DNA of 64,000 nucleotides from an uncultured Pseudomonadota bacterium (GTDB taxonomy: Bacteria > Pseudomonadota > Gammaproteobacteria > DASZBR01), in contig CAVQJZ010000007.1 of the NCBI GenBank assembly GCA_963712965.1, forward strand, positions 134,015-198,014, written 5' to 3'. The translations under genes and the position numbers were made by a program. Each line of letters begins with the position of its first letter. Position 1 is the first letter of the stretch. Shown piece by piece: positions 8,234 through 34,677 of the stretch. The notes under the pieces were generated by a model. The model saw only the letters and a list, made by a program, of their open reading frames with translations. It was not told where the DNA came from and did not search any database.

Positions 8234-8235
8234 CC

Positions 8236-15861: not shown

Positions 15862-16016
15862 ACATTTTGAGACCTATGCGAAAGTGAACTATCCACCTGA
15901 GTATAGTAAATGTCCTTTCGTTGTCAATTTATTATACCTTTAATCAACATGGCGCTTTGTCATTGATGTGCTATGCTTATCTACCATGGATTTTTATTTT
16001 TTATCAGCGGGTGTTT

Positions 16017-16466
16017 ATGGGAATAAAATCAGGCACTAAAAAGTTTTTCAAACCTCTCGTAGATGTCCCTTCATGGATTGGCTTTGGTCAATTAAAAGAA
16101 CGTACCGGCTATATTGCCAGCGTTATCAAAAATATTTTTACTATAGACAAACCTTCTGAGTCCAAAGAAACATTTGACGAAGCCGCAAAAAGACTTCATC
16201 TAGATGAAGCTACACTTTCAAGAAGACAGAAAGGGTTTCAACGTCTTGTAATAATTTATCTCGTGCTAAGCCTCACTATAACTACCTATCTAATTTACTC
16301 ATTGTGGCAATCTGCTTGGCTTGCGAGCATGGCATCTTTTGGAATTTTAGCAGTCCTGCTGGGACAATTGTTTCGATATCACTTTTGGTTATTCCAACTT
16401 CGTCAACGTCGATTAGGTTGCACTTTTCGTGAGTGGCTCAATGGTTTGGTAGGTAGGGCAAAATGA
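16017..16466 (+). CDS. icmV: Dot/Icm inner-membrane protein IcmV
   Basis: 149 aa from MGIKSGTKKFFKPLVDVPSWIGFGQLKE, two TM helices. Divergent from icmW and ATGA-coupled to dotA, as in Legionella region I. Confidence 0.8.
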   Translation: MGIKSGTKKFFKPLVDVPSWIGFGQLKERTGYIASVIKNIFTIDKPSESKETFDEAAKRLHLDEATLSRRQKGFQRLVIIYLVLSLTITTYLIYSLWQSAWLASMASFGILAVLLGQLFRYHFWLFQLRQRRLGCTFREWLNGLVGRAK

Positions 16467-18997
16467 AACGCTTATTAGTTCTATTATTCACCGTATTTTT
16501 TTCGCCTTTAGTATTGGCGCAATCTATTGGCTCAATTGGAAACCTGAGCCTTACACCACCGCCAGGCGATGTGTCTGTTGCATTTTTGAGCAATATATTT
16601 GGCTCTGTCGACGGCGTTCTTCATGGTTCTGGCAGCCAATTACTCGGCAACATGTTTGGCGTATTTAATGCCGCCGTACTTTTTTTGGGTGGCCTTGTCA
16701 TACTTTACACACTGCTTATTTCTACTTTAAACACAGCGCACGAGGGTGAAGTATTAGGAAAAGATTGGTCTTCCATTTGGGTACCTCTGAAAATGGTTAC
16801 GGGTATCGCATTACTAATTCCTAAAGCAAGCGGCTATTCATTCATTCAGATATTTATGATGTGGGTAGCAGTAATGGGCATCGGTGCTGCGGACAGCATG
16901 TGGAATGTTGCGGTGAACTACCTCTCTCAGGGTGGCTCTCTCATACAACAAAATCAACCTGTTCCTGCTTCACTGTTGACGAATTCTGGCACTGTTTTTA
17001 AATCACTCGCTTGCACTTTCACACTGCAAAACCAATTGAAACAATACCGCAATGATCAAATTAGTAATGGCGTTCAACCAATTGCTGTTGTACCCGATTT
17101 TTATCAAGCAATCCTAACTGCACTAAATACAAACGGAAGCTCTGGATTAGTACAATTCCCGCCAAGCACACTACCGGCACCTTACGATAAGCTTGCTGGC
17201 GCCTGTGGTTCAGTTTCTTGGACGGCAGCATCAGCGAAAGTACTTCCTTACTATGTATTCGACGATAACCATCGGATGTTACCTCAATACCACTACATGA
17301 GTGCTGCCTACAACAGCGCGAAGAAACAAGCTGTCTCTGAAATAATCACTAACCTCGTGCCTGGCGCCATATTAGCTGCCGCTAATTACGATCGCAGCAA
17401 ATTACCGCTTGGTAAAATGTTGTCAACGAGCCCATTGCAATGGGGATGGGATGATAACAAACCATACATTCTGCCTGGATCACTTTTAAGCGATTCAGCA
17501 TCGAGCTATATGGCAATCATGTCACCCGTTGTACGCACACTCACAGCTTCCAGCAGTAGCTCCATTTATAATACCAAAGACTTAGCAAACAGTAAGGACC
17601 AGGGCTGGGCGTTGGCTTCTACTTACTATTACGATATTACTCAAGCAAATACCTATGCCACCAGCGCATGGAGTTCAGCCGCTGACTTTACAGCGACTGG
17701 CCCATCAAATGATTTAAGTAATTCGTCAATTATTACCAGCGTACTTCCGGCGAATAGTGCTTACGTTGGAAACATTAATACGATGGTAAATGGCAACGCT
17801 AATTATGCGATACCTTCTTATCTTACTCAGGCAACCTCGTATGGCCAGCAACTTACTTATGGAAGAGTAACTCCTGTCAACAGTTATCGGGATGCGTTGG
17901 GCGGTGGTGATAGCGGAGAAATAGTTGCCGCTCTGTTGAGCGCGGTCAGCCAAGGGATGACTGAAGTATTTGAAGGGTTTTGGAATTTAGAAAATGCGCA
18001 AGGGACAAATGAAGATCCTGTTATCTCCGTAGCAAGATTGGGCGCTGGCTTGGTCAGTCAGTCAGTCACATGGATGATCACCATTTCCGGCATCGTATTT
18101 GATATTACTTTTGCAATGGGCGCATTTTTTGGCACTACTTTTTCATCTGCGATGCTCGCTTTGATCACACCATTAACTTCTGCACTAACACCTATATTCG
18201 TTCTGCTTTTGACAACTGGAATAACGTTAGCTTTTTACCTCCCTCTTATACCTTTTATCTTATTCACCTTCGGTGTAGTGGGTTGGTTTATCACAGTAAT
18301 TGAAGCGATGTGCGCTGCTCCGCTTGTAGCACTCGGAATAACTCATCCTGGCGGGCATCCGATTTTGGGTAAGGCTGATCCCGCGGTATTATTGCTCGTC
18401 AACGTATTTATTCGACCAACACTGATGATCATCGGCCTTCTGGTTGGAATGATGCTAAGTTATGTGAGCGTATGGCTTCTCAATAAAGGGTTTTTTCATA
18501 TTATTTCTTCGAGCGTGTGGCCAGTACTAGGAGGTCTTTCATTTTGGTTTGCCTGGGTAGGAGTTTTAATTGTCTATACAGCTGTCATCGTGCAACTAAT
18601 GCATAAAAGTTTTTCGCTCACCTACGTTATACCAGATCAAGTATTCAAATGGATCGGTACCAATATTCAAGGCATGGGTGGTGAAGAACAAGCAGAACAA
18701 GCAATTGCTGGCAGCGTCCACAAAGCAGCTGAAGGCGCTGCTTCTGCTGTAGGCACAGCAACGAAAGGCATGGGTGAAGCAGGCGAAAAAGTCGGCGGCG
18801 CAGTCCATAGCGCAGCAGGAAAAGCTGTGAGCACAGTACAAAAAGGTGCCCAAACTGCTATCAGCGCTGTTGGCAGTGTAGCGGGGAGTGCTGGTGGTGG
18901 CGGTGGTGGTGGCGGCGGCGGTGCCGTTGGTGGTGTCACCAAAGCCGGCAGCGGAGTAATCCAAGGCGCCAACGTCATGGATGCTGAGAAGAAATAG
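16463..18997 (+). CDS. dotA: Dot/Icm polytopic membrane protein DotA
   Basis: 844 aa: signal/TM, large periplasmic loop, cluster of C-terminal TM helices, Ala/Gly-rich tail. Position icmV-dotA. Confidence 0.85.
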   Translation: MKRLLVLLFTVFFSPLVLAQSIGSIGNLSLTPPPGDVSVAFLSNIFGSVDGVLHGSGSQLLGNMFGVFNAAVLFLGGLVILYTLLISTLNTAHEGEVLGKDWSSIWVPLKMVTGIALLIPKASGYSFIQIFMMWVAVMGIGAADSMWNVAVNYLSQGGSLIQQNQPVPASLLTNSGTVFKSLACTFTLQNQLKQYRNDQISNGVQPIAVVPDFYQAILTALNTNGSSGLVQFPPSTLPAPYDKLAGACGSVSWTAASAKVLPYYVFDDNHRMLPQYHYMSAAYNSAKKQAVSEIITNLVPGAILAAANYDRSKLPLGKMLSTSPLQWGWDDNKPYILPGSLLSDSASSYMAIMSPVVRTLTASSSSSIYNTKDLANSKDQGWALASTYYYDITQANTYATSAWSSAADFTATGPSNDLSNSSIITSVLPANSAYVGNINTMVNGNANYAIPSYLTQATSYGQQLTYGRVTPVNSYRDALGGGDSGEIVAALLSAVSQGMTEVFEGFWNLENAQGTNEDPVISVARLGAGLVSQSVTWMITISGIVFDITFAMGAFFGTTFSSAMLALITPLTSALTPIFVLLLTTGITLAFYLPLIPFILFTFGVVGWFITVIEAMCAAPLVALGITHPGGHPILGKADPAVLLLVNVFIRPTLMIIGLLVGMMLSYVSVWLLNKGFFHIISSSVWPVLGGLSFWFAWVGVLIVYTAVIVQLMHKSFSLTYVIPDQVFKWIGTNIQGMGGEEQAEQAIAGSVHKAAEGAASAVGTATKGMGEAGEKVGGAVHSAAGKAVSTVQKGAQTAISAVGSVAGSAGGGGGGGGGGAVGGVTKAGSGVIQGANVMDAEKK

Positions 18998-19010
18998 GAG
19001 TAAGACACAG

Positions 19011-19805
19011 ATGATAAATCACAGAGATTTTGAATCATTACTTGACGCCATCAATGATGGATCTTCAACAGCCATCAAACGATTTGTTCAGTACATGTAC
19101 TATCATCATCAGGCAATCGATAATGCGACTTATCAGCAACATCAAAAAATAGCTTTCGATTATTTTTCTGAAAAAGCACGCGAGGGCAACCCGATTGCTC
19201 AAGCGTGTTTGACTATCCTTTATCTGAGTGATTTTGGTGATCCTACCATTGCAGCAACCAAAGCGTTCGAGTGGGCACGCCGCTCAGCAGCATCAGGCAA
19301 CACTGATGGCGAAAGTTTATTGGGATATCTTTATCTCGACGGCATTGGTATTACACAAAATTACACCCACGCAATGGAATGGCTACAAAAAGCCGCTGAA
19401 AAAAACCATTCAACTGCTATAAATAACATAGGCGTAATTTATGAAAACGGCCTTGGCGTAACTAAAAACTTAAAAGAAGCTCTCAAATGGTATCGCAAAA
19501 GCGCTGAACAAGATGACGCAGTTGCCGAGCAAAACTTGGGTCGTTGTTACAGTCAAGGTATTGGTGTTACACAAGATTTCACTGCTGCTATCCAATGGTA
19601 TGAACGCGCAATAGAAAAAGGCCACCCTTCTGCACTAAACAATTTAGGATTTATGTATGAAAACGGATATGGCGTCGAAGTCAATCTTAGAAAAGCCATC
19701 GAATATTATTTAAAAGCGGCTAAAGCTTTCAAACCAATTGCATTGGCTAATCTTGAACGTTTGAGAAAAAATGGTCACGAAAAATTGATCGAAGAATTAA
19801 GCTAA
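19011..19805 (+). CDS. Sel1-like repeat (SLR) protein
   Basis: 264 aa from MINHRDF with AGGAG Shine-Dalgarno at 18996-19000, inside the dotA 3' end. At least five SLR units (A..W..KAAE.G...A..NLG..Y..G.GV..N...A..WY.KA). Confidence 0.85.
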   Translation: MINHRDFESLLDAINDGSSTAIKRFVQYMYYHHQAIDNATYQQHQKIAFDYFSEKAREGNPIAQACLTILYLSDFGDPTIAATKAFEWARRSAASGNTDGESLLGYLYLDGIGITQNYTHAMEWLQKAAEKNHSTAINNIGVIYENGLGVTKNLKEALKWYRKSAEQDDAVAEQNLGRCYSQGIGVTQDFTAAIQWYERAIEKGHPSALNNLGFMYENGYGVEVNLRKAIEYYLKAAKAFKPIALANLERLRKNGHEKLIEELS

Positions 19806-20957
19806 CCCTGCATCTTTATCAGCATTTTTTGCACTCGCTAATAATAATTTATAATCGCGTTGTGAAATAATGCCTTCTTTAAATCTTCTTTCAGCATCGA
19901 CTTCCATCGGCTGACCACGTTCTTTTAATAAACGCCGAGTAACTGCTGTCACCTCATCCAAATCTGCTTCTAATAAAACATCACGCGTCTTATCATCAAA
20001 AATTAAATACTCACGTAACGCTACACGTTTGCCATCTACCGTCGGCACTAATTTTTGCCAAATGGCTAAACGAATCGTTTCTAAAATATCGATCGTTCGA
20101 CCATGACGTTCTTCCGCTGGAAATGTCGTCACCAAACGACGCACGGCTTCTGCTACACCATTACTGTGTAGCGTGGTGTAAACCGGATGGCCGGTTAATG
20201 CTGCTTCTAATACAGCGCTCATGGTTTCTTGATCACGCGCTTCACCCACTAAAATTAATCGCGGTTTACGACGCAGTGCGTTGCGTACCCCAGCAGCAAA
20301 TGAAGGTAAATGACGAGGAATTTCGGTTTGACTGACAATCGAATTTGGCATTTGAATTCCGTCGTACACAAATTCAATTGGCGCTTCATAGGTTAATACT
20401 TTGCGATGACTCTCATTATTTTCCACCAAATTACGAATAATCGATGCGAGCAATGTACTTTTACCTGAGCCTGTTGCACCAGTGATGTAAACCACACCTT
20501 GATAAGGAGCAACTGCTGCCAAAATATCTGGCGGCAAATCCATTTCTTCTAAATGGGGTGGCATACTCGGAATAGTACGCAATGTAATTTGAATTGCATC
20601 ATGCCCTTCCACCATACAACCTGTGGCATTCACACGATAACGAAAACGTTCGCCACGACTTGGGCGAACTTCATAATGCGTATCGACATCCACGCCATTT
20701 AAAATTTGCGCGGTACCATTTGGGCCATAAATAGCATTTAATACTTCGCCTACTTCGGTATTGGATAATTTACGATGCGTAATTCGATGCAACCTGCCAT
20801 AAATTTCTGCATAAATTGGCTCGCCGGTTTGCAATGTAATATCAGACGCACCTAATTGTTGTGTAAATGCCAACATGCGATCTGTTTCTGCAGGCGTGAA
20901 ACGCAAAGGCTCATTCGACAATAAATAATTTTCATTTAATTCACTGACCTTGCTCAT
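19797..20957 (-). CDS. dotB: Dot/Icm hexameric ATPase DotB (PilT/VirB11-like)
   Basis: 386 aa from MSKVSELNEN. Walker A GATGSGKST. ATGA overlap with the dotC stop. Confidence 0.93.
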   Translation of the reverse strand: MSKVSELNENYLLSNEPLRFTPAETDRMLAFTQQLGASDITLQTGEPIYAEIYGRLHRITHRKLSNTEVGEVLNAIYGPNGTAQILNGVDVDTHYEVRPSRGERFRYRVNATGCMVEGHDAIQITLRTIPSMPPHLEEMDLPPDILAAVAPYQGVVYITGATGSGKSTLLASIIRNLVENNESHRKVLTYEAPIEFVYDGIQMPNSIVSQTEIPRHLPSFAAGVRNALRRKPRLILVGEARDQETMSAVLEAALTGHPVYTTLHSNGVAEAVRRLVTTFPAEERHGRTIDILETIRLAIWQKLVPTVDGKRVALREYLIFDDKTRDVLLEADLDEVTAVTRRLLKERGQPMEVDAERRFKEGIISQRDYKLLLASAKNADKDAGLA

Positions 20958-21784
20958 TGTTGTTCCGTCCGTAACGCAGGATTCCATTGTTGGCTATTGG
21001 ATTGCAATGCAGGCAATGCGGTAATACGCAGTATTTGATCGTTAATATTTAAGCTTGATCCGCCACCTGTCACACCTAAGTTCGTTTTAGCAACAAACGG
21101 CGCGCTGACCATATTTTGTGCGCGCAAATTACGATAGAGCAACATGCCGTTATAATCTCTTTCTAAACGCGAAAGATTTTGCGCATAAATTTCATTTGCT
21201 TGTTGAATCCCTTCTTTCCAACCTTTGTCGATTAATTCTTTCCACAATTTCACTTCTTGTGGTGTTTGCGGCAAAACACTTTTATCTGGCACAGCTGGCA
21301 ATGGATAATGCATCCATAAATAATCACGCCATGTGGGCGGTGTGGTGACAAATTGTGCTTGGCTAATAATTTCATACGCACGATCCGCTAAACGAATCGT
21401 ATCTGGCCCATCAAGATTTAACGTTTGACGCGCTTCGGTTAATACGGGTGGCAAAATATTATGTGGCAATAAAAGTGCACCAAAATTATAAATGCGATCT
21501 AATTGTGAACTACGCTCTTCTAACGTTTGATTAACTTCAGCGGCACGCCAATGCAAACCTGATTGCGCACCAATGCTCATGGCGGTTTCTTTTAATGCGG
21601 CTTCACGCATTGAACTAATGACATCTACTTTTTTCTTAACTGTTGGCGGAGAGGAATGCAAATCCTTCAAACCCTCCAATGTAGCCGTATTGCCTTTGCT
21701 GTCATCGAAATGAGTTTCGGTTGTCGCACATGCTGTCAACCACAAACATCCAGCAATGATTAACAAAATTCGGCCCATAGACAT
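20954..21784 (-). CDS. dotC: Dot/Icm outer-membrane core lipoprotein DotC
   Basis: 276 aa. Lipobox (IAGC/LTAC). dotD-dotC-dotB order. Confidence 0.8.
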   Translation of the reverse strand: MSMGRILLIIAGCLWLTACATTETHFDDSKGNTATLEGLKDLHSSPPTVKKKVDVISSMREAALKETAMSIGAQSGLHWRAAEVNQTLEERSSQLDRIYNFGALLLPHNILPPVLTEARQTLNLDGPDTIRLADRAYEIISQAQFVTTPPTWRDYLWMHYPLPAVPDKSVLPQTPQEVKLWKELIDKGWKEGIQQANEIYAQNLSRLERDYNGMLLYRNLRAQNMVSAPFVAKTNLGVTGGGSSLNINDQILRITALPALQSNSQQWNPALRTEQQ

Positions 21785-21790
21785 AACGTG

Positions 21791-22282
21791 CTAGTTCCTT
21801 GCGTAACGAACTTCGATAATTTTAGCCTGAGGGAGTACTGCAATATTAGCTTGGCTACCACATTGATAATCTGCATCACGCAAAATATAAGCCAGCGGAA
21901 CATTTTTCACATCGAGCGTCACTAAAACGGGAATTGCTGGCGGTACACCCAAAACACGCATTTTATAACCGGCCGCTTGTGCAACTTTTTTGACCAATGG
22001 ACCAACAGGCCCTGACCAATCTAGTGAAGCTAACGTATCCAATCCTGGCTCTGAAGGTTGTGGCAACTGCTTCATCACTAATCCAGGTGTAGTGGCACGT
22101 TGAATGGCCGCTGTATTTAATGATGCTTGGCTTACTGTGCTCGCCGCTTCTGCTAATTTAATTGAGGCATTACTGGTGGCAACAAGCGCTTGTGTTTTTT
22201 GTTGATTGCTTGCGCAACTGGTTAATAACAATCCTGATACAACAACGGCAACTAGTCGTTTGATATCCATAACACTCTTCAA
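21791..22282 (-). CDS. dotD: Dot/Icm outer-membrane core lipoprotein DotD
   Basis: 163 aa (the same length as L. pneumophila DotD as I recall). Lipobox LLTSC. First gene of dotDCB. Confidence 0.8.
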   Translation of the reverse strand: MKSVMDIKRLVAVVVSGLLLTSCASNQQKTQALVATSNASIKLAEAASTVSQASLNTAAIQRATTPGLVMKQLPQPSEPGLDTLASLDWSGPVGPLVKKVAQAAGYKMRVLGVPPAIPVLVTLDVKNVPLAYILRDADYQCGSQANIAVLPQAKIIEVRYARN

Positions 22283-22331: not shown

Positions 22332-22904
22332 TCAAGGCAAAGTCGGCTGCATTAAATGGTATTGAATTTGTTGTGTTTTACCGCTTTTTAAAATACGCCA
22401 ATGCGCAGGAATTGGCAGAGTTTTTAATTCACGCTCCACTTCGATATAAATAAATGTTTGTGCATGAATTAATTTTTTTTCTTCCAACCATTGCGCGCAT
22501 TCTTTTAATAACGATTGATGAAAAGGCGGATCTAAAAAAACAATATCGAACGGTTCTTCTGATGACAGCGCTAACCCTTGCGGCACATTGGTTTCATAAA
22601 TAGCAATGTTGTTTGCTTGCAACGCTAAACTATTCGCACGCAATTGTTGAACGACCACAGGTGATTTATCTGCCATCACAACGTATTTAGCACCACGCGA
22701 TAACGCTTCGAAACTTAATGCACCACTGCCCGCAAATAAATCCAAACAATTAGCATCCACAATATAAGGCGCTAACCAATTAAATAATGTTTCGCGCACA
22801 CGATCGGGCGTGGGTCGTACTTCTTCTAATGCAGGAAAATTAATTTTGCGACCGCGCCACTGGCCACCGATGATTCGTACTTGGGATAAATTTTGTTTAG
22901 ACAT
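22332..22904 (-). CDS. rsmD: 16S rRNA (guanine966-N2)-methyltransferase
   Basis: 190 aa. RIIGGQWRGRKINFP, DLFAGSGALSFEALSRGA, FLDPPF. Confidence 0.9.
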   Translation of the reverse strand: MSKQNLSQVRIIGGQWRGRKINFPALEEVRPTPDRVRETLFNWLAPYIVDANCLDLFAGSGALSFEALSRGAKYVVMADKSPVVVQQLRANSLALQANNIAIYETNVPQGLALSSEEPFDIVFLDPPFHQSLLKECAQWLEEKKLIHAQTFIYIEVERELKTLPIPAHWRILKSGKTQQIQYHLMQPTLP

Positions 22905-23119
22905 TAATGTTGCGTAGAAATACCACGATGAATTTCTTCGACCTGCTCAACAGAAAGTCCAGTCACGCTTGTAATAAAATCAATTGTTGAACCACTGTGT
23001 AATAGACGAACAGCCACTTCATGCATGCCCTCAACACGGCCTTTTTCTATGCCTTCTTGCAGACCAGCTAAGTGGCCTTGCTGTATACCTTCAGCTCTCA
23101 ACATATCGGCGAGTGTCAT
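22904..23119 (-). CDS. Possible intragenic RpnS-like small protein (71 aa), in frame with the Rpn C-terminus
   Basis: Internal ATG at 23119-23117 preceded by AGGAG with 8-nt spacing (TTAGGAGAAAAAGCCATG, read on the minus strand). E. coli Rpn genes are reported to encode such an internal antitoxin. Confidence 0.3.
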   Translation of the reverse strand: MTLADMLRAEGIQQGHLAGLQEGIEKGRVEGMHEVAVRLLHSGSTIDFITSVTGLSVEQVEEIHRGISTQH

Positions 23120-23866
23120 GGCTTTTTCTCCTAAAGGTGGCGATAACGCAGTTGTTAATTCAGCTAAAAATTCGGATTTACTCTTAATCTCAGCCGTACT
23201 AACGACATATTTCAGTATAGCTAATACATAATCTTCTGAACCATTATTTTCTAAATAGTTAATCAGGTCAACGACTTGCTTGATTTTGGGGATGATATCT
23301 CTGGCAAACACATGTTTCATCATGAACTCCATTAAGCCTGCCCATTGATGTGAGCGTAGCTCTTCATCAGGAATTTGAGTCAGATCGATCAATTGGAATG
23401 GATTAGAAAAAAGCTCTTTTGCTAAAGCCGCATGAGGACCAAAAAGATCGAACAAGCTAGTTGAGTAAGGATAAGGTTGTTTGCCATTGAAAAAGATCAT
23501 GGGATAAACTACTGGCAACACATCTGTTTTTTGTTCTTTTAAGTGCTGTTCAATAATACGCAGAGTATATTTAAGTAAGCGAAAAGGCATTAAGACTTGT
23601 GCCTGGGATTGGTGTTCCACCAACACATAAAGATAACCCTGTTCATCACCCAAAAAATCCACAGAGTAAAGCATGTCAGTCATGCTGTTGCGCAGTTCTT
23701 GATCGATATAACTTTCTTTGCGGATAGCCAATGACGACAAATCAATTTTATCGCGAAGATAAGCAGGCAGGTGATGGGTAAAGAAATCTTTGGCTACATT
23801 AAGATTCGACATGACGTGTTTAAACACTTTGTCGTGTGGCGAAGCAATTTTATTATTGTTGCTCAT
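22904..23866 (-). CDS. Rpn-family recombination-promoting nuclease / putative transposase (PD-(D/E)xK, YhgA-like)
   Basis: 320 aa. HDKVFKHVMSN...AKDFF..HLP......DLSSL......YIDQELR...DMLYSV......YLYVLVEHQS is the typical Rpn/Transposase_31 N-terminus. Confidence 0.85.
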   Translation of the reverse strand: MSNNNKIASPHDKVFKHVMSNLNVAKDFFTHHLPAYLRDKIDLSSLAIRKESYIDQELRNSMTDMLYSVDFLGDEQGYLYVLVEHQSQAQVLMPFRLLKYTLRIIEQHLKEQKTDVLPVVYPMIFFNGKQPYPYSTSLFDLFGPHAALAKELFSNPFQLIDLTQIPDEELRSHQWAGLMEFMMKHVFARDIIPKIKQVVDLINYLENNGSEDYVLAILKYVVSTAEIKSKSEFLAELTTALSPPLGEKAMTLADMLRAEGIQQGHLAGLQEGIEKGRVEGMHEVAVRLLHSGSTIDFITSVTGLSVEQVEEIHRGISTQH

Positions 23867-23929
23867 ACATTTTCTCGTTTTAATTAGTAAAAAAATAAAT
23901 TACCTTATTTTAGTATTGTTGTAAAACAT

Positions 23930-25417
23930 TTAATTAGCGCAAACTCGATTTACCGCTTGTTGCCAACCTCGATAATATTTCTCACGCAGCGCTTTTTGCA
24001 TTTGCGGTGTAAATACATGTTCGCATTGCCAATGTTTGGCAATATCGTCAAGTGACGAAAAAATACCCACGCCAAGACCCGCTAACATAGCAGCACCTTG
24101 CGCACTAATTTCGGTAATGACTGGACGCTCCACGCGAATATCGACAATATCGGCTAAAAATTGCATTAACCAATTATTTTTTACCATACCACCATCAACA
24201 CGCAATGTTGTAAAAGTAATGCCAGAATCTTTCATCATCGCTTGCATTAAATCACGTGTTTGGTAACACACCGCCTCCAACGCCGCGCGCACAATATGTC
24301 CAACATTTGTTTCGCGTGTTAATCCTAAAATAGCACCGCGTGCTAAAGGATCCCAATAAGGCGCGCCTAACCCTGTAAATGCTGGCACTAAATAAACACC
24401 GCCATTATCATCAACTGTCAGCGCTAATTTTTCAGATTCTTGTGCGTGATCCATCAAACGCAGCGTATCACGCAACCAAAGCACTGCTGCACCGGCCACA
24501 AAAATACTACCTTCAAGCGCATAAGAAGTTTGTTTGTTAATACGATATGCAATTGTTGTTAATAAACGATTGTTGGAATTAACTGCTTTATCGCCGGTAT
24601 TTAACAAGACGAAACAACCCGTGCCATAGGTACTTTTAATCATGCCGGGTTTAAAACAACTCTGGCCAAAAGCAGCGGCTTGTTGATCCCCCGCCACCCC
24701 AGTAATAGGAATGGCTACACCAAAAATTGCTGGATCGGTAAATCCAAACTCAGCTTGGTTATCCAATACATCTGGCAATAATGCAGCAGGAATACGAAAT
24801 AAACGCAATAATTCTTCATCCCATTGCTGGGTGTGAATATTAAATAACAACGTGCGCGATGCATTAGTAATATCGGTTACATGACGTGTGCCGCCCGTTA
24901 AACGCCACAATAAAAAACTATCAATCGTGCCAAATGCTAATTCACCACGTTCTGCCATGATGCGCGCATTTGGCACATGCTCTAAAAGCCAGGCAATTTT
25001 AGTCGCGGAAAAATAAGGATCTAACAATAATCCGGTGCGCTCTCGCACATCCTCATTCATATTAGCGGAAACTAATGATTGGCATTGTTCGGCGGTGCGC
25101 CTGTCTTGCCACACAATGGCGGGATAAATTAATTGGCCGGTTTTTTTATGCCAAATTAATGTGGTTTCACGTTGATTGGAAATACCTATGGCGGCAATAG
25201 ACGCTGGAGGAATTTTGGCTAACGTCATTGCAATTTTGGCGCTTGCTACGGCATCGCGCCAGATGATTTCAGCATCATGCTCGACCCAGCCTTTGTGTGG
25301 AAATGTTTGTGGTAACTCAATTTGGTGTTGCGAGCAAAGCTTGCCGCTATCGTCAAAAATAATGCTGCGCGTACTGGATGTGCCTTGATCGATTGCCAAA
25401 AGATATCGAGTCATCAT
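23930..25417 (-). CDS. glpK: Glycerol kinase
   Basis: 495 aa from [22 protein letters not shown] kinase motifs. The 31-codon extension in the track ORF runs into the MITE-like repeat. Confidence 0.95.
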
Positions 25418-25441
25418 ATTCCTTATGCAAAATATTTTTAC

Positions 25442-25524
25442 GTCATTGCGAGCGCAGCGAAGCAATCTAGTTTTTTCTGGATTGCCACGGCGATTTCGCT
25501 TACGCTTCATCGCCTCGCAATGAC
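25442..25524. mobile_element. MITE-like repeat, family B (11-bp perfect terminal inverted repeats GTCATTGCGAG / CTCGCAATGAC)
   Basis: 83 nt. A second copy in inverted orientation lies at 46768-46849. Confidence 0.65.
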
Positions 25525-25528
25525 AACA

Positions 25529-26419
25529 ATGAGCTTGCTTATGTTACAACGTTTAAAATCTGGATTGGCAAATTTATTCTTAGGCAAAAAAGCCATTGAT
25601 CCCGCGCTCTTCGAAGAAATCGAAACCGTTTTATTACAAGCCGATGTCGGCTTGCCTGCCACACAAAAAATTTTAAAAGATCTTACCGAACAAGTCTCAC
25701 GCAACCAATTACAAGACGCGGATGCATTAATGCACGCCTTAAAACAAAGTCTTGCTGATTTATTAATGCCCTACGCACAACCTTTAGTTATTGCGCCCAC
25801 CATTAAACCGTATGTCATTTTATTTATTGGCGTTAATGGCGCGGGCAAAACAACCTCGATTGGGAAATTAGCCAAACATTTACAACACGATGGCAAAAAA
25901 GTTTTATTAGCCGCGGGCGATACTTTTCGCGCAGCTGCTATTGAACAATTACATGTGTGGGGCGAGCGCAATCATATTCCCGTCATTTCACAACAACATG
26001 GCGCAGACAGTGCGGCTGTTATTTTTGATGCGATGCAAGCAGCGAAAGCCAGAAATATTGATGTTTTATTAGCAGACACTGCTGGGCGTTTACACACACA
26101 ACAACATTTAGTGGAAGAATTAAAAAAAGTAAAGCGTGTCATCACTCGCGCTGATGGTTCTGCGCCTCATGAAGTATTACTCGTCTTAGATGCGGGCATT
26201 GGGCAAAATGCTATCGTGCAAGCAAAACAATTTCATGAAGCATTAGGTGTCACTGGCATCATATTAACCAAATTAGATGGCACGGCCAAAGGTGGCGTTA
26301 TTTTCGCCATTGCTGAACAATTAAAATTACCGATTCGTTTCATTGGCGTCGGTGAAAAAATTGAAGATCTGAAATCGTTTGATGCAAAGACATTTATTGA
26401 TAAATTATTTGAAACGTAA
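25529..26419 (+). CDS. ftsY: Signal recognition particle receptor FtsY (NG domain only)
   Basis: [32 protein letters not shown]. Start is ATG 25529 or 25541; the upstream part of the track ORF is MITE sequence. Confidence 0.92.
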
Positions 26420-26430
26420 AACAACTTGTA

Positions 26431-26453
26431 GGGGCGCACCTATGTGTGCGCCC
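26431..26453. repeat. REP-like GC-rich hairpin GGGGCGCAC-CTATGT-GTGCGCCC
   Basis: 8-9 bp stem 12 nt after the ftsY stop. No T-run, so probably not a classical terminator. Shares the GTAGGGGC core with the element inside rlmL. Confidence 0.45.
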
Positions 26454-26484
26454 AAGTGAAGCAACGCAACTGGAGCGCTAATCG

Positions 26485-28314
26485 ATGGAATCAAAAAGCA
26501 ATGAACAAAACAACAAAGAGAAAGAAAAGGTTAAAAAACCCGTAGAAGAGCTATCTCTCAAGAACCTTTCAGAAGATGAAGATACACAATTTGGTCAATT
26601 AGTAGCGCTTTGGGGAAATGGAAATATTCAAATTTCTGATATTGAAACCAACATTCAAAAAATCAATGTCGAAGCACTAAATATGCTTGCTGTTGCGCTA
26701 GATAATGGGGACCAAAAATTAATAAAAAACAAAGGGGCCGCGATTAACCTGTATCAAATTGCGGCACAACTTGGCTCACTCTGGGCAAAACATAATTTCG
26801 CACTCTTAGCACCCGACGATCAACAGAGAAAAGAGTTTGAAAAACTAAATAAAGATTTAGCAAAAGTGAAAAATCCTGATTCAGTGGATGGATTTTATTA
26901 TATTGCGGGACACACCAACTATGAACTTGGTCATTATGTGGCTGCGCGCAAGCATTTTGAAAAATATTGCGCCCTCCCTGATTCCAAGAAAAATTCTGAT
27001 TGCGAAAAAGAGGCAAAAGACTTTCTGAAAGAATTGTCTCCTGATGCGTTATTAAAAAAAATACTCTTCAACGCTACACCACCTCCACCTATAATACTGA
27101 AAGCACCGTGGATAAATTTAACGGAAGACTTTGATGGTTATGATGACACCGATGAACAAGAAATAGGAGAAGGAGTTTCTACTCTGGCTGTTTCTGAGGA
27201 AACAGGATCTAGTCCTGCTACAACAAACAAAAAAGTTTACGAGTCAGGTGAACGCTTGCCTGAATTAAAGACTCATGATCGCCTTGTCCAAACAGAAAAA
27301 CATTTTTTTTCGCCCGAGCGCACGCGCAGCAAAACAACTTCAGAAATAGCTACTAAACTTCAGAAAAACAGACTTGAAACAGATCAAAGTAAGTTAACCG
27401 AAATAGATGTAACCAATATCTCAACAAGAAAAATGATTGTCGCAGAAGCAGCCGTGCTTAAAGCATCACTTCAATACAATGGAAGAGGCGCTGATAAGAG
27501 TAATACTCCTCTCCAGTGGGGCGGCAAAGAGGAAACTATGACCATCAAAAAATCTAAAGTTAAATACTATCATCAGCCTAAAAATCACTCTAATCATCTT
27601 GGCAATTATCATATGGATGAGATCGGCACATATGACGCGATTTGTGGCGCCTTAATCAGAATTGCCGGCAGCACACCCCAGCAACCAAACATCGAAAATG
27701 AAAAGAAAATGGCTGCATGGATGTTGGAATATATGAAAAATGGAACACCTGTAACCCTTGAAAAGCTACGAGAGATACGCGGAATAGCAACTCAAAATGA
27801 TGCGGATACTTTAGCAAGAATTTTCTATCACTGCTTTGTGAAAGAAATTGCACGCTGGATGATGCCTAGAGATCAAACTCACGAACTTCCATTCGCTATC
27901 GTGCAAGCACGCGCAGTAAAGTTGATTTCACTGGGATTTCTTAATCTCAAGGATGTATTCGATCAAGATGCAGATTACGGTGTATTTACCCTAAGGCCGT
28001 ATGAGAAAAAAGATGTCCCTTGCAAAATTGGAATTGGAGCAGATATAGATCAATCCGATAGCAAAACACTCAAAAAAATACCTCGTATAAACAAGCTGTA
28101 CAACTCATGTGTTTTAGAAGTAAAACCAACTTCTGCTAAACACTACGCTGCTTTTTTCGAAGAGCATCCCAAAGGCAGCTTAGTTATCACTCGCCAAGCA
28201 TTGCACACAGAACTGAAAGAACATTTCGGAGGTATTGATTCTGACTCTGATGGCGAAGGTTACGATTCAGATACAGCGAACGAATTATATCCAGGTGCAT
28301 TTGAATTTAAATAA
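26485..28314 (+). CDS. Orphan 609-aa protein, candidate Dot/Icm substrate
   Basis: Long uninterrupted ORF. N-terminal Sel1/TPR-like helical segment, central Ser/Thr/Lys-rich linker, Asp/Glu/Ser-rich C-terminus (GGIDSDSDGEGYDSDTANELYPGAFEFK). I recognise no catalytic motif. Confidence 0.7.
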   Translation: MESKSNEQNNKEKEKVKKPVEELSLKNLSEDEDTQFGQLVALWGNGNIQISDIETNIQKINVEALNMLAVALDNGDQKLIKNKGAAINLYQIAAQLGSLWAKHNFALLAPDDQQRKEFEKLNKDLAKVKNPDSVDGFYYIAGHTNYELGHYVAARKHFEKYCALPDSKKNSDCEKEAKDFLKELSPDALLKKILFNATPPPPIILKAPWINLTEDFDGYDDTDEQEIGEGVSTLAVSEETGSSPATTNKKVYESGERLPELKTHDRLVQTEKHFFSPERTRSKTTSEIATKLQKNRLETDQSKLTEIDVTNISTRKMIVAEAAVLKASLQYNGRGADKSNTPLQWGGKEETMTIKKSKVKYYHQPKNHSNHLGNYHMDEIGTYDAICGALIRIAGSTPQQPNIENEKKMAAWMLEYMKNGTPVTLEKLREIRGIATQNDADTLARIFYHCFVKEIARWMMPRDQTHELPFAIVQARAVKLISLGFLNLKDVFDQDADYGVFTLRPYEKKDVPCKIGIGADIDQSDSKTLKKIPRINKLYNSCVLEVKPTSAKHYAAFFEEHPKGSLVITRQALHTELKEHFGGIDSDSDGEGYDSDTANELYPGAFEFK

Positions 28315-28437
28315 CCCACTATTTTTTCGCAAACTTTTTCTGAGTACCGTTACCACGCTCATGCTCAAAACTTAGCATAATTATATGCCCATGATTCGAA
28401 GCAGATAGCAGGAATAAAGGGCAATTTCATTGCCTTA

Positions 28438-28851
28438 CTACAAATGCAATTTTCGACAAAACTCGGCTAATGTCAAAATAGGATAGTCCAACTTTAAATC
28501 TAATAAATCTTGATCACCCGTAATAAGATAATCTGCATGGCTTGCAATCAATGTTGCAAGAATAGGCGAATCATTACTATCTGATTCAACATTGACATTA
28601 ATATGCTGTATATCAACAGTGTTTGCCAAAAAACTTAACATTTCGACATAGTTATCAATTTCTTGAATGCTTAACTTCAATCGTTTGGCAATTTTTGGAT
28701 ACATCAAAACACGTTTAAGCTCAGATAAAATTGGTTCGGATAAGGCAATATCAAAATGCGCTTTACGCCATAACGCAACGACACTGCCAGCAGAACTTGC
28801 TGGTAGTAAAAGGCTGGAAATCCAAATATTGGTATCAAGAACGACGAGCAT
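28438..28851 (-). CDS. PIN-domain toxin (PIN_3 / TIGR00305-like)
   Basis: 137 aa. Acidic residues in VLDTN, SELK, SNDSPIL, ITGDQD. 17-nt overlap with the upstream antitoxin gene. Confidence 0.85.
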   Translation of the reverse strand: MLVVLDTNIWISSLLLPASSAGSVVALWRKAHFDIALSEPILSELKRVLMYPKIAKRLKLSIQEIDNYVEMLSFLANTVDIQHINVNVESDSNDSPILATLIASHADYLITGDQDLLDLKLDYPILTLAEFCRKLHL

Positions 28852-29125
28852 TTTTCTTTTTTCTTCTTACTGTGGTTAACGCTTCAGCAATTTCAGCTTC
28901 AGCTAAAGAAATATTTTCGCCTTTATACGCTTCGCCCAGCGCTTCAGTCAATTGATCAAACTGTTCTTTCAAATGACGAATTTTCTCAAACAAATGAATA
29001 TCAACCAAGGCAGCAACCGGTTGCCCGGCTTTAGTAATCACTACGCTGTCATGGCGATAACACACCCCATTGAGCATTTCACCAAATTGTTTTCGCACTG
29101 TCATCGCAGAGGCTTCATGTATCAT
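28835..29125 (-). CDS. Phd/YefM-family antitoxin
   Basis: MTVRKQFGEMLNGV...VVITKAGQPVAALVDIHLFEKI is a typical Phd/YefM N-terminus. Start is 29125 or 29104. Confidence 0.8.
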   Translation of the reverse strand: MIHEASAMTVRKQFGEMLNGVCYRHDSVVITKAGQPVAALVDIHLFEKIRHLKEQFDQLTEALGEAYKGENISLAEAEIAEALTTVRRKKKNARRS

Positions 29126-29218
29126 CTTTCTACTCCATCAATTATATCAATTAGCATAATTATAGTAGGCCATAAATGCTAAGGAAAATCCATAAATTCG
29201 AGATGCGCATTGGTTAAA

Positions 29219-29245
29219 TTAGCACTCGACCAAAAAGAGTGCTAA
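29219..29245. promoter_or_regulatory. CIRCE element (HrcA operator), perfect consensus TTAGCACTC-N9-GAGTGCTAA
   Basis: Read directly: TTAGCACTC (29219-29227), GACCAAAAA, GAGTGCTAA (29237-29245). The element ends 39 nt upstream of the rpoH ATG at 29284. Confidence 0.85.
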
Positions 29246-29283
29246 ACTGCCTGGCATTGCATTGTTAGAGGATGCCTTTTGCC

Positions 29284-30111
29284 ATGAACCGCCAATTACA
29301 ATCATTAAATATCGCCCTGCCTATTGGCAGTCTTGATGCTTATATCGAGATGACGCGCCGAATTCCCTTATTAAGCCAAGAAGAAGAACATGAACTCGCT
29401 ATTCGCTGGCATGAAAATGAAGATCTTGCAGCCGCACGCCAACTTATTCTCGCTCACTTACGTTATGTCGTTAGCGTTGCTAAAAAATATTCGGGTTATG
29501 GTTTAGCACTTTCTGATTTAATTCAAGAAGGTAGTATTGGTTTAATGAAAGCGGTCAAACGTTTCGACCCTCATGTCGGCGTACGTTTGGTCACGTTCGC
29601 CATGCATTGGATCAAAGCTGAAATTCATGAATTTGTTTTGCGTAATTGGCGCATTGTCAAAATTGCCACCACCAAAGCACAACGTAAATTATTTTTTAAA
29701 TTAAAAGACGCACAAAAACGTTTAGGTTGGGGAAATCAAACAGCCATTAAAAATATTGCGGATGATTTATCTGTCAAAACAGATACCGTCATTGAAATGG
29801 ACGCACGGTTGAATTATCAAGATACTGATTTAGAAGCAATTCTTGATATGGCGGACCATCATGCGGATCCCGCTAAAATTATTGAAAAAAATAGCGATGG
29901 CCAACAACACCAACATTCATTATTAGACGCCCTGGAAAAATTAGATCATCGCAGTCGCGATATTTTAACGAAACGTTGGTTAAATGAAAAAAAATCGACG
30001 CTAGAAGAATTAGCTGCCATTTATCAAGTCTCTATTGAGCGCATCCGTCAAATTGAAAAAGCCGCGTTAGGGAAATTAAGAACAGTTATCGATGCCGCAA
30101 TGACTCGCTAG
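29284..30111 (+). CDS. rpoH: RNA polymerase heat-shock sigma factor sigma-32
   Basis: 275 aa. RpoH box TKAQRKLFFKLK, region 2 DLIQEGSIGLMKAVKRFDP. An alternative ATG lies at 29272. Confidence 0.95.
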   Translation: MNRQLQSLNIALPIGSLDAYIEMTRRIPLLSQEEEHELAIRWHENEDLAAARQLILAHLRYVVSVAKKYSGYGLALSDLIQEGSIGLMKAVKRFDPHVGVRLVTFAMHWIKAEIHEFVLRNWRIVKIATTKAQRKLFFKLKDAQKRLGWGNQTAIKNIADDLSVKTDTVIEMDARLNYQDTDLEAILDMADHHADPAKIIEKNSDGQQHQHSLLDALEKLDHRSRDILTKRWLNEKKSTLEELAAIYQVSIERIRQIEKAALGKLRTVIDAAMTR

Positions 30112-30186: not shown

Positions 30187-33100
30187 GTGGATAGCGTTGG
30201 TTTTTTAGCTCGTGTTTATGGGTTGATGGGAGAAATTTGGAGCTTAGATCCAGACTCGTTGCATGAAAAGGTGCATCATGAGTACGCCAAAAATGTCTTG
30301 GTTTATCTGAACAGCGTTTTGATAGACCCTGAAGTATCTGCTAAAGATCTCCGCGAAGCTTTTACAAAACATTGGCAATTGGTTAAAGGCAATATGCTGT
30401 GTTATACAGCATGTCCGCAAAGTGATGTAACACTCTTGTTGTGTGATATTGCAGAAGCTGTTGCTACTGAACTTGGCATAGAACCCATCGAAGTTTTAAT
30501 GCCAGGCATTAAAACTGAAGCAACGCTTGATGGTTATCCTCCTGATTTAACTAAGATTGATCTCAAAACAATTTTACGTACCCACATTTTAAGTGACGAT
30601 GGAAAACATTTATTACCCGTAAATTGTGTTCTTGAAATTAATTCGCTGCAATCAAAAAAAGCGATTGGAAATCCTTACTATGATCCTGATGTAGACGATG
30701 TGGCGGCTGGATGTATTAATCCCCGCGAGTTGCATCGCATGTTTGAACATAATGTAGATAGTCGCGCATTGCGAGATGTATTAACGCAGCTAGATGGATT
30801 GATGTATGGAGAACATTATTTATTAGGGCAATTAAATCTTCTTTTGAAATATTTGACGGTAGCAAGTGCTTCGGGTGCTGGAGAAGAAATAAATGCGGGG
30901 GAATCTGGCTATGCAGCGATGGCAAGATTTGATGATTTTTATAAACAATTAACCGCGGATGATAAAAATAAAATTCCAGAGAAGCTCAAAAAACAAATTG
31001 AAATTTTATTAAATTTAGATTCAGAACGTTTATTGCTTAGCCGATTTAAATATTATCAAAGGCTTGCTCTTCCACAAAGAGAAAAAAAATATACGGCGGA
31101 AGAAAAGCAAGAATTAGAAGCTGGAGTAACCCAATATGAAAAAAAACTAGAAGCATTTGATCCTAAGGTGGCACGTCAAGAAACTTGTCTCAACACCAGG
31201 CGACGAGTTCTTGCATCAGCTATGTCAGGCCAAGAAGTACTTTTAGGCAACATTGGTTTATCGCAAGAAAACTTAGCTGAGCAACTGACTGCGGCAAAAA
31301 ACAATGTTGAGGCGGCAAAAAAAGATTTAGTAAAAAAATTAACTGTAGGTAAAGTTGAAGGCCAAGACTCATTAGGTTTAAGCCAGCAATTACTTGATCA
31401 GCTTGAAGTGCCTTTCGCGCTCCCCAATCTCGAAACATTTAAAGATTTATTAAAACGAGTGTCCACAGAAGAATTAAAATCGTTGTTAGCAAAAGAAGAA
31501 AATCAACGAGAAATAACTGCCGTTATTGGAAGCTTAGAAAAACTTATTTTGCTTAACACAGAAATCCCGCTGCATTTATTTGTAACGTTCTATCAATGTT
31601 TAGCCAGCGAGCTCAAAGAAACTTTGCTATCAGACAGCGGAGATGTTGGCATGTTGTTAGATATGTTATCGCCAGAACAACAAGGCTTATTCATTAATTA
31701 CTTGATTTCCAAGTGGGTAACATCAAAAGAAGATTTTATTTCTATTCTTAAAAAACTCAGCACACCTTCGCAATGCCAAGCATTTTGCGAAGCGTGCAAA
31801 GACCAAATAATATCAAAAGAAGACTTTATTTCTGTTCTTAAAGAACTCGACACACTTCCGCAATGCCAGGCCTTGGTTCAATCTCATCCTGACACAGCAA
31901 TATATTTGCTGAAAACAGCACTTGTTTCACTCAATGAACTTGGTTCAAAAATACTTGCCTGGCGCCCATTAACAGCTGAATCCACAAAACCTGTTCTAGA
32001 TTTAGTAATAGAATCTACTAAAAACACAGAATTAGAACTTAACGATCTTCAATGGTCGAGCATTGATAAGTCTTCTCATCCCGAGATTAAAAAACTTGTT
32101 ACAGAAAATATAGTATTAAAAGTGCTTTCGACAGACCCTGACAACACCATGCTTACTTGGGATTTTGTAAAATGCATCCTAGCAAGTCCAGTATTAACAA
32201 TAGCACTTGATAAATCTTGCTTAAAAAATACTACTGAGCATTGCCCTGAAATAGCGATATTAATTTTGCAAACATTGGTTAATGATGATACTTGTAATTA
32301 CCCCTCTGACAACGCGAAATTTATTTTGCAAAAATTTTCGATTGAATTTGATGAAAATGATTTGCTTGATATTATCAAGCCTCATCCTGCAGTTGAAAAA
32401 TTTGCTGCAGAAAACCCCATATTGGCAGAACTATTTAAAGACCCCGATTATTTGGTAACAAAAGCCAAATCTGATTTAGATTTTGCAAAACGCATGTTGG
32501 CAATTCCTGCATTCGCGGCTAAATTTAATCGGGATCATTTGCGAGAGCTTGCTAAAATTCATCCTGATCTCGCTAAAATTATTTTTACAATGCCAGAATT
32601 AGCTAATCAGTTTTATGATGATGCGCCTAATTTATTGAACATCTGTGAATCTCATCCTGATACAGCAATATTTATTCTAACAGCATTATTTGATTCGCCT
32701 GACAAACCTGATCCAGAGAAAGACGCTCTACAGAAATTAGTAGCCGAACCTGACCATAAGGCAACAATATCTTTTCTAGAATCATTATTTGATTCATCGA
32801 AAAAACCTGATTCAGAGAAATCTGCTCTGCAAGAATTAGCAGCTAAACTTGATCCATCTCAAGTGTTGCAGATTGCCAAATCTAATCCCGATGCAGCAAT
32901 ATTGATTCTAACAGCATTATTTGATTCATTGAACAAACTTGATTCAGAGAAATTTGCCCTGCACAGATTAGTAACTGAACTTGATCAGTCTCAAGTATTG
33001 AGGATCGCCAAATCTCATCCTACTGTTGCAAAATTTGCTCTAGAAACTGAAGCATTGGTTAATTTATTTGATAACAATTCCTTACGCATCCTTCGCATCA

Positions 33101-34677
33101 GTCAATCTTGCCAACCACCCATAACCTCTGATAATACTTCACGCAATGCTACTGAACCCGATCTAGACAATGCAAAACGCATTCTGGCAGATCCAACATT
33201 ATTGGTGAAGCTCAATAAGCTTGAATTGAAAAATCTTACCGTGGCTCATTCTGAAATAGCAATGTTAACTTTGCGAGCATTAGCTGATGATAAAGCTTCT
33301 GATGACTCTTCTGATGATGCGAAATTTATTTTGCAAACTTTAGCAGCTGAATTTACTAATGATGACCTATTAAATATTGCCAAACTTCATCTTGAAGCAG
33401 GAATGTTTATCTTGAAGGAATTAATTGCCAAATTTAATAAATTTGATCTATGCTGTATCGCCCAGTCTCATCCTGATCTTGCTATATTTATTTTACAAGC
33501 ATTGATTAATTCTTTGGACAAACCTGAGGAAAAAAAATCTGTTCTAGAGAAATTAGCCTCTGAATTTAATGAGTCTGATTTATCAATTATCGCTAAATCT
33601 CACGCGGATGTTCAAAGTTTTGTTACAGAAAACCCCATTTTAACAGCGTTACATAAAGATCCTGATTCTTTATTAGAAGAAGCAAAATCTGATCCGGGCT
33701 TTGCGAAACGCATGCTAACTATTCCTGTATTAGCTGTTAAATTTAATAAAGATCATTTGTATAATCTCGCTAAAATTATTTTAACAACGGATGCATTTGA
33801 TCAACATGCCTTAATAAGCATCGCTGGATCTCATCCTTATACAGCAATATTTATTCTAAAAGTATATTTTGAGTCATGGAATGGACCTCCTAATCCAGAA
33901 AAAATCACTCTGCGGAAATCAATCGTCAAACTTGATGACTTTCAATTATTGCAAATTGCCAAATCTCATCCCGACACAGTAATATACTTATTGAAAGCAT
34001 TGACTTTTTTATTAAATCAAATTAATTCAAAAATTATTGCTTTGCGCCAATTAGAGCCTGAAGACTCTACTAAACCAAGGCTATACGCTCTAGAACAATT
34101 AATGAATGAACTTGATCCGCTTCAATTATCAAGCCTTACCAAATCCACCCATCCTGAGATTAAAAAATATGTGGCAGAAAATCTAATATTAGTGTTATTC
34201 CCGGCAGATCCTATTCTCTGGATAACAGAAACCTGGTCTAATTTAGATTTAGCAAAATTTATACTAGCAACCCCAATATTAATTTGGCGCTTAAATGAAT
34301 ATGCCTTTAAAAAAATTGCCAAATCTCACCCTGAAATAGCGATATCAATGTTGCAAGCATTAATTGATGACAAAGCTTCTAATGATCCCTCTGATGACAA
34401 AAAATTTATTTTGCAAACCTTAGTAGCTAAATTTAACAAAGATGATCTACTTGAGATCGCCAATTCTCATCCTGATGTTGCAAAATTTTCTCTAGAAACT
34501 GAAGCGTTAGTTAATTTATTTGATAAACGCATCCTTCGCATCAGCAAATCTTCTCAGTCTAATGAACCACCCAAGTCTAGTCCTGCCAATACATGGGCTA
34601 GTCTCTTTAATGTGAGACATTCAATTTCTTCTGGCATTGGGTTTATTACTAATAGGATCAAACAAGCGCGACATTGA
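30187..34677 (+). CDS. Giant 1496-aa helical-repeat protein, candidate Dot/Icm substrate
   Basis: GTG start. Uninterrupted 4.5-kb ORF. The C-terminal ~900 aa are built from ~40-aa units (..L..IAKSHPD.A.FIL.AL..SL.KP..EK..L..L..) organised in three super-repeats. Confidence 0.8.
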   Translation: MDSVGFLARVYGLMGEIWSLDPDSLHEKVHHEYAKNVLVYLNSVLIDPEVSAKDLREAFTKHWQLVKGNMLCYTACPQSDVTLLLCDIAEAVATELGIEPIEVLMPGIKTEATLDGYPPDLTKIDLKTILRTHILSDDGKHLLPVNCVLEINSLQSKKAIGNPYYDPDVDDVAAGCINPRELHRMFEHNVDSRALRDVLTQLDGLMYGEHYLLGQLNLLLKYLTVASASGAGEEINAGESGYAAMARFDDFYKQLTADDKNKIPEKLKKQIEILLNLDSERLLLSRFKYYQRLALPQREKKYTAEEKQELEAGVTQYEKKLEAFDPKVARQETCLNTRRRVLASAMSGQEVLLGNIGLSQENLAEQLTAAKNNVEAAKKDLVKKLTVGKVEGQDSLGLSQQLLDQLEVPFALPNLETFKDLLKRVSTEELKSLLAKEENQREITAVIGSLEKLILLNTEIPLHLFVTFYQCLASELKETLLSDSGDVGMLLDMLSPEQQGLFINYLISKWVTSKEDFISILKKLSTPSQCQAFCEACKDQIISKEDFISVLKELDTLPQCQALVQSHPDTAIYLLKTALVSLNELGSKILAWRPLTAESTKPVLDLVIESTKNTELELNDLQWSSIDKSSHPEIKKLVTENIVLKVLSTDPDNTMLTWDFVKCILASPVLTIALDKSCLKNTTEHCPEIAILILQTLVNDDTCNYPSDNAKFILQKFSIEFDENDLLDIIKPHPAVEKFAAENPILAELFKDPDYLVTKAKSDLDFAKRMLAIPAFAAKFNRDHLRELAKIHPDLAKIIFTMPELANQFYDDAPNLLNICESHPDTAIFILTALFDSPDKPDPEKDALQKLVAEPDHKATISFLESLFDSSKKPDSEKSALQELAAKLDPSQVLQIAKSNPDAAILILTALFDSLNKLDSEKFALHRLVTELDQSQVLRIAKSHPTVAKFALETEALVNLFDNNSLRILRISQSCQPPITSDNTSRNATEPDLDNAKRILADPTLLVKLNKLELKNLTVAHSEIAMLTLRALADDKASDDSSDDAKFILQTLAAEFTNDDLLNIAKLHLEAGMFILKELIAKFNKFDLCCIAQSHPDLAIFILQALINSLDKPEEKKSVLEKLASEFNESDLSIIAKSHADVQSFVTENPILTALHKDPDSLLEEAKSDPGFAKRMLTIPVLAVKFNKDHLYNLAKIILTTDAFDQHALISIAGSHPYTAIFILKVYFESWNGPPNPEKITLRKSIVKLDDFQLLQIAKSHPDTVIYLLKALTFLLNQINSKIIALRQLEPEDSTKPRLYALEQLMNELDPLQLSSLTKSTHPEIKKYVAENLILVLFPADPILWITETWSNLDLAKFILATPILIWRLNEYAFKKIAKSHPEIAISMLQALIDDKASNDPSDDKKFILQTLVAKFNKDDLLEIANSHPDVAKFSLETEALVNLFDKRILRISKSSQSNEPPKSSPANTWASLFNVRHSISSGIGFITNRIKQARH
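32650..33040 (+). repeat. Intragenic tandem repeats (~120-130 nt units) within the 1496-aa ORF
   Basis: Three consecutive units encode ...LFDS(P/S/L).K(P/L)D.EK.AL..L...LD.SQVL.IAKS.P... with high nucleotide similarity by eye (e.g. 32650-32760 against 32880-32990). Confidence 0.7.

Follow-up and report, generated by a model that had tools for sequence, protein, structure and literature searches.

A palindrome at positions 29219–29245 of the 64-kb stretch of DNA analysed here (the window) is, on comparative grounds, probably a functional HrcA operator (CIRCE) that coincides with the core sigma-70 promoter of rpoH. A CIRCE at rpoH has been described before and is widespread in other proteobacteria, and the window represents a further case in an undescribed Legionellales lineage; the modestly new point is the operator-as-promoter architecture of the rpoH-class CIRCEs. 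The relevant features of the window are:

29219–29245, no strand assigned: predicted CIRCE operator, with left arm TTAGCACTC (29219–29227), spacer GACCAAAAA (29228–29236) and right arm GAGTGCTAA (29237–29245)
29219–29224, + strand: predicted -35-like hexamer TTAGCA, inside the left arm, matching TTGACA at 4/6 positions, with an 18-nt spacer (custom promoter scan)
29240–29248, + strand: predicted extended -10 TGcTAAACT, formed by the right arm and the next 3 nt (TG at 29240–29241, hexamer TAAACT at 29243–29248)
29267–29272, + strand: Shine-Dalgarno sequence AGAGGA, 11 nt before ATG 29284, read from the sequence
29284–30111 including the stop codon, + strand: rpoH (sigma-32), 275 aa, assigned by TIGR02392, the RpoH box and a start kept in the sister locus L081

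The earlier note had described a perfect CIRCE, and this was confirmed: TTAGCACTC-GACCAAAAA-GAGTGCTAA agrees with the consensus at 18/18 arm positions and its spacer is exactly 9 nt. No other CIRCE match occurs across the 64-kb window, even with three mismatches tolerated. A chance match was rejected, as the site is perfect, only 9.5e-7 perfect sites are expected per window given its base composition (40.4% GC), and dinucleotide-preserving shuffles of the window produced a CIRCE match in 0/100 cases. The element lies at a heat-shock gene, overlapping the best promoter candidate and ending 38 nt upstream of the rpoH ATG at 29284, which agrees with the 39 nt previously given within counting convention.

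The ORF downstream of the element is a genuine sigma-32, scoring 344.9 bits against NCBIfam TIGR02392 (rpoH_proteo; curated cut-off 323.1) and carrying the RpoH box QRKLFFKLK at residue 133. The ORF list set the start of rpoH at ATG 29272; we adopted ATG 29284 because the resulting N-terminus, MNRQLQSL, aligns with those of relatives and is conserved with L081, and the in-frame ATG 29272 is an unlikely start because it overlaps the Shine-Dalgarno sequence. With respect to an E. coli-type thermometer, the 266-nt 5′ region of the rpoH mRNA folded no better than shuffled sequence (z = +0.99), bearing in mind that a thermometer need not be unusually stable, and an Rfam search returned nothing beyond a mir-223 match, dismissed as a hairpin-driven chance hit.

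The window contains a Dot/Icm type IVB secretion cluster at 13830–22282 (IcmX, IcmW, IcmV, DotA, DotB, a DotC/TraI-like protein and DotD), which places the organism in the Legionellales. Its lineage is isolated, the closest RpoH relative being 76% identical and the next 61%. Gene order around the element runs rsmD, a Rpn/ISNCY transposase-like gene, glpK, ftsY, a 609-aa orphan, PIN and Phd, CIRCE, rpoH, a 1496-aa orphan repeat protein, mlaA and the atp operon; PIN and Phd form a toxin–antitoxin pair divergent from rpoH. Neither hrcA, grpE, dnaK nor groESL lies within the 64-kb window. Among relatives, groESL is located two genes downstream of rpoH in P0005 and P0007, and neither groES nor hrcA occurs in the wide flanks around P0025 and P0014 (L207, L208). 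Genes for hrcA occur in Coxiellaceae, for example in Berkiella (PMC9803151).

Several neighbouring genes are of interest in their own right. The 1496-aa orphan (30187–34677, + strand), directly downstream of rpoH, has no Pfam or NCBIfam match, contains at least seven degenerate repeats with the motif SHPxxA(I/K)F(I/A)L and is missing from the syntenic locus L082; it is a candidate Dot/Icm effector. Further large ORFs without significant family match lie at 12350–13840 (496 aa), 26485–28314 (609 aa), 39639–41507 (622 aa), 41629–45246 (1205 aa), 52073–53242 (389 aa) and 59016–60794 (592 aa); they may encode effectors or be specific to the lineage. A protein with a HipA N-terminal domain (8215–9543, + strand) may be a second toxin–antitoxin-type component of the window, a kinase toxin. 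In the intergenic region itself, a second palindrome, TTAGCAT-N18-ATGCTAA (29150–29181), shares the outer CIRCE hexamers and is 5 nt wider; it lies within the promoter region of the divergent Phd-PIN operon, is not kept as a palindrome in L081 and is probably either a chance occurrence or a toxin–antitoxin operator.

Comparison with Legionellales-like relatives revealed conservation of the element itself. The sister locus L081 (76% RpoH identity), which has the same PIN-Phd-rpoH layout as the window, carries TTAGCACTC-AGCCACAAA-GACTGCTAG followed by AAT, 42 nt before the ATG, and thus keeps 16/18 arm positions. The intergenic DNA around it has mostly diverged from that of the window or differs by indels, the conserved islands being the toxin–antitoxin promoter region and CIRCE. 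L082 and L083 (61% RpoH identity) carry a perfect CIRCE, with AAT after it, that overlaps the stop codon of ftsY; their gene order, dotB-dotC-dotD-rsmD-ftsY-rpoH-mlaA, is that of the window minus its insertions. More distant loci retain the palindrome through paired changes: L206 (58% RpoH identity) has TTAGCACTT-N9-AAGTGCTAA at 2929–2955, with mirror-symmetric C9T and G19A, and L208 (57%) has CTAGCACTC-N9-GAGTGCTAG at 9932–9958, with mirror-symmetric T1C and A27G, a pattern that fits recognition by a dimeric protein. CIRCE also precedes rpoH in L085, L001 and L005.

Other relatives lack the element. Legionella feeleii, L002, L032 and a Coxiellaceae subclade (L003, L006–L009, L011 and L012) have an ordinary TATAAT box instead of CIRCE at rpoH, and its absence from L. 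feeleii and one Coxiellaceae subclade indicates that this control is dispensable in related bacteria. Intermediate states were also found: L004 (about 3962–3991) has a decayed operator, TTAGCAGGT-N9-GAATGCTAA plus ACT, in which TGCTAAACT is retained, and L207 (about 9942–9955) retains TGCTAATAT, its left arm being gone; in both, what is left of the right arm would serve as the extended -10. These sequences suggest that CIRCE may be lost through erosion of the operator-only bases, with the promoter surviving.

The same comparison showed how the surroundings of rpoH have been rearranged. Relative to L082 (2113–4000), the rsmD-ftsY-rpoH-mlaA backbone of the window (22904–29125) is split by the Rpn/ISNCY transposase-like gene, glpK, the 609-aa orphan, the Phd-PIN module and the 1496-aa gene. 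In L206, a DUF900 gene and a Phd-PIN pair in opposite orientation are independently present between ftsY and rpoH. The ftsY-rpoH junction thus looks like an insertion hot-spot throughout which CIRCE stays attached to rpoH. In L. feeleii (L084, 1304–4000), ftsE and ftsX lie between ftsY and rpoH; both are absent from that interval in the window (25322–29284), L082, L206 and L208.

Alignment of 69 rpoH-associated CIRCEs on the element revealed conservation beyond the right arm, position +29 being A in 96% and +30 being T in 99% of the sites, a level equal to that of the arms. The alignment shows no mirror-image conservation before the left arm, which argues that the +29/+30 bases do not belong to a symmetric protein contact. 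At rpoH CIRCEs, the right arm plus nAT spells an extended -10, TGcTAAnAT, and the left arm starts with TTAGCA, a 4/6 match to TTGACA located 18 nt upstream of the -10. The inner arm bases CTC/GAG are also invariant in the aligned sites, though a promoter has no need of them. This configuration distinguishes rpoH sites from those of chaperone operons: AT occupies +29/+30 in 74/78 rpoH sites versus 6/67 groES or hrcA sites (Fisher p = 1e-28), with nAT following the right arm at 5/37 groES and 1/30 hrcA sites of the metagenome sample, and the groES and hrcA sites have a TATAAT-like box just upstream of the left arm instead.

In the window, the bases after the right arm are ACT, so that T is present at +30 and C stands at +29, where 96% of rpoH sites have A; the ACT variant recurs in L023, L031, L149 and L004. 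The resulting hexamer, TAAACT, retains A2 and T6, the key positions. Measured against the consensus, the predicted promoter is weak (-35 with 4/6 matches, 18-nt spacer, -10 TAAACT), and TTAGCA-N18-TGcTAAACT is the only intergenic candidate in the promoter scan that combines a -35 of at least 4/6 with an extended -10.

A further promoter motif accompanies many of the aligned sites. GGAACTT, a -35 of the sigma-E type, precedes the element by about 10 nt in at least 30 of the 69 loci. Most betaproteobacterial sites have it together with TCtcA where the left arm meets the spacer, and the distance between the two motifs is the canonical 16 nt. Together with the extended -10, these motifs imply that sigma-E and sigma-70 promoters are both embedded in the operator in Betaproteobacteria. 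The arrangement was observed among L013–L080 (e.g. L013, 3922–3965) and in the metagenome loci L095, L096, L161 and L190. No sigma-E-type -35 is present in the window, where ATGCGCA occupies -16 to -10, and the GGAACTT/TCtcA motif is absent from L081 and L082 too. We tentatively raise the possibility, which we regard as more doubtful than the operator assignment itself, that the CIRCEs at rpoH are a separate architectural class, not described so far, whose operator is itself the promoter, with a sigma-E promoter interleaved in most Betaproteobacteria and missing in the Legionellales clade of the window; sigma-32 of an obligate intracellular bacterium might then have no dedicated transcriptional input other than HrcA and, by way of HrcA, GroEL availability.

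These observations favour the following mechanism. The left arm would supply the -35-like TTAGCA, and the right arm plus 3 nt the extended -10 TGcTAAACT, with transcription predicted to start near 29255 and to yield a 5′ UTR of about 28 nt. As operator and core promoter are the same DNA, bound HrcA would block RNA polymerase, and a putative HrcA dimer on the arms would compete with the polymerase directly. GroEL keeps HrcA active in studied systems, and sigma-32 normally drives groESL. Titration of GroEL by unfolded proteins, or inactivation of HrcA by heat, would free the promoter and allow more sigma-32 to be made, which would in turn restore GroEL; because sigma-32 drives groESL, the loop would constitute transcriptional negative feedback on the level of sigma-32.

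With this arrangement, HrcA would stand above sigma-32 in the heat-shock network of a Legionellales lineage about which little is known, which is of use for regulon annotation and for understanding stress control in intracellular bacteria and leaves the known picture unchanged. A CIRCE that doubles as core promoter offers a clear and testable mechanism, promoter occlusion, and its architecture hints at how mutation could separate the operator function from the promoter function.

In one alternative, HrcA has been lost or no longer acts at this site and the palindrome is a promoter only or a relic operator, TTAGCA and TGCTAAACT persisting as -35 and extended -10. The state exists in relatives, since L004 and L207 keep the promoter-relevant bases within an otherwise decayed operator; the window, however, has each of its 18 arm positions intact, among them the inner CTC (29225–29227) and GAG (29237–29239), L081 keeps 16/18 of them despite diverged flanks, and the mirror-symmetric changes of L206 and L208 are compensatory, which makes this explanation unlikely. 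We consider slightly less probable still a function in RNA, in which a promoter further upstream would yield an rpoH leader containing the element as a 9-bp hairpin that affects mRNA stability or translation, or that terminates or attenuates transcription. The hairpin is stable (-15.9 kcal/mol, z = -2.8), CIRCE is reported to influence mRNA stability in some bacteria, and in L082 the overlap with the ftsY stop codon means that read-through transcripts there would include the element. The upstream genes of the window are divergent, however, so no transcription from them reads into the element, and no upstream promoter candidate with a good -35 was found in the scan. Moreover, the sequence of the arms, beyond their pairing, is invariant over about 80 loci, single-arm variants are mostly not wobble-compatible, and the asymmetric conservation of nAT fits a -10 element. 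An intrinsic terminator in particular was rejected, as the terminator scan made no call and no T-run (U-run in RNA) follows the stem on either strand.

The neighbouring toxin–antitoxin genes suggest a third explanation, an autoregulatory operator of the divergent Phd-PIN operon, given that antitoxins bind palindromes and that the element, 94 nt away from the start codon of phd, is in the intergenic region that phd and rpoH share. This was rejected as highly improbable, because the element is found at rpoH in relatives without the module (L082 and L208) and in Betaproteobacteria, and because the toxin–antitoxin promoter region (29126–29165) is conserved as an island of its own. Control of rpoH through an HrcA operator, as the earlier note had proposed, is instead the reading supported by comparison, through the sister lineage, the Legionellales-like relatives, the 69/80 rpoH loci and 9/120 metagenome CIRCEs described below and the overlap with the only plausible promoter.

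CIRCE at rpoH is widespread. Among 80 rpoH loci taken from one-genome-per-species contigs, 69 carry a CIRCE with at most one mismatch, located about 10–170 nt before the rpoH segment that was matched. All betaproteobacterial loci whose upstream sequence could be read are among them (>55 genomes), from Thauera, Azonexus, Dechloromonas, Pandoraea, Cupriavidus, Paraburkholderia, Nitrosomonas, Methylophilaceae and others. In an independent sample of 120 perfect metagenome CIRCEs, the site lies upstream of groES in 37 cases, hrcA in 30, rpoH in 9 (about 8%) and dnaK in 1. On a rough neighbour-joining tree of RpoH, the distribution is consistent with a CIRCE that was present at rpoH in the ancestor and was lost several times in Gammaproteobacteria. 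The wiring probably goes back to the ancestor of Beta- and deep Gammaproteobacteria, with repeated loss, for example in Legionella and one Coxiellaceae subclade. Two contigs labelled as Bacteroidota and Desulfobulbus MAGs (L069 and L074) have Rhodocyclales-like rpoH loci, the CIRCE spacer of L069 being that of Thauera, and are likely binning contaminants.

Permina and Gelfand (2003) reportedly predicted CIRCE at rpoH in Betaproteobacteria, and Ueki and Lovley (2007) are said to have studied RpoH and the CIRCE at rpoH of Geobacter sulfurreducens further. Our literature search found nothing on CIRCE at rpoH in Legionellales. In Table 8 of Rodionov et al. (2004), G. sulfurreducens rpoH is entered with a perfect CIRCE at -51; for beta-, gamma- and epsilon-proteobacteria, these authors refer to Permina and Gelfand (2003) (PMC545781). 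Earlier comparative-genomic predictions of the kind mentioned in the earlier note therefore exist, but their restriction to a few lineages is wrong in view of the frequency observed here.

The closest documented parallel is G. sulfurreducens, where rpoH, as in the window, is preceded a few tens of nucleotides upstream of the start codon by a perfect TTAGCACTC-N9-GAGTGCTAA (PMC545781). Its CIRCE is placed at -51, and that of the window spans -65 to -39. Both systems share HrcA control of sigma-32 synthesis, predicted in the case of the window, whereas G. sulfurreducens is a deltaproteobacterium and carries CIRCE also at hrcA-grpE-dnaKJ and groESL. In Betaproteobacteria, CIRCE occupies the corresponding place at rpoH and the extended -10 is likewise based on the right arm, with TAAAAT or TAATAT as the hexamer where the window has TAAACT; most betaproteobacterial sites add GGAACTT and TCtcA, unlike the window, L081 and L082. 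In the classical CIRCE systems at groESL and hrcA-grpE-dnaK (Bacillus subtilis and many other bacteria), the inverted repeat is identical to that of the window and the repressor presumably the same and GroEL-dependent. However, the operator of groES and hrcA CIRCEs lies at or after the transcription start, whereas that of the window coincides with the predicted promoter, and the classical targets are chaperones, whereas the target in the window is a regulator, sigma-32.

In E. coli, rpoH is controlled by sigma-70 promoters and a sigma-E-dependent P3, which the betaproteobacterial sigma-E arrangement resembles, together with an mRNA thermometer and feedback through DnaK, GroEL and FtsH; to our knowledge, neither HrcA nor CIRCE is present. 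This feedback acts on the activity and stability of sigma-32 rather than on transcription. The earlier note regarded the circuit of the window as unlike the E. coli paradigm. The RpoH box, which is implicated in control in E. coli, is nevertheless conserved in the window, so that post-translational control of the E. coli type may operate alongside HrcA control and need not have been replaced by it. Chaperone availability feeds back on sigma-32 in E. coli and, as proposed here, would do so in the window.
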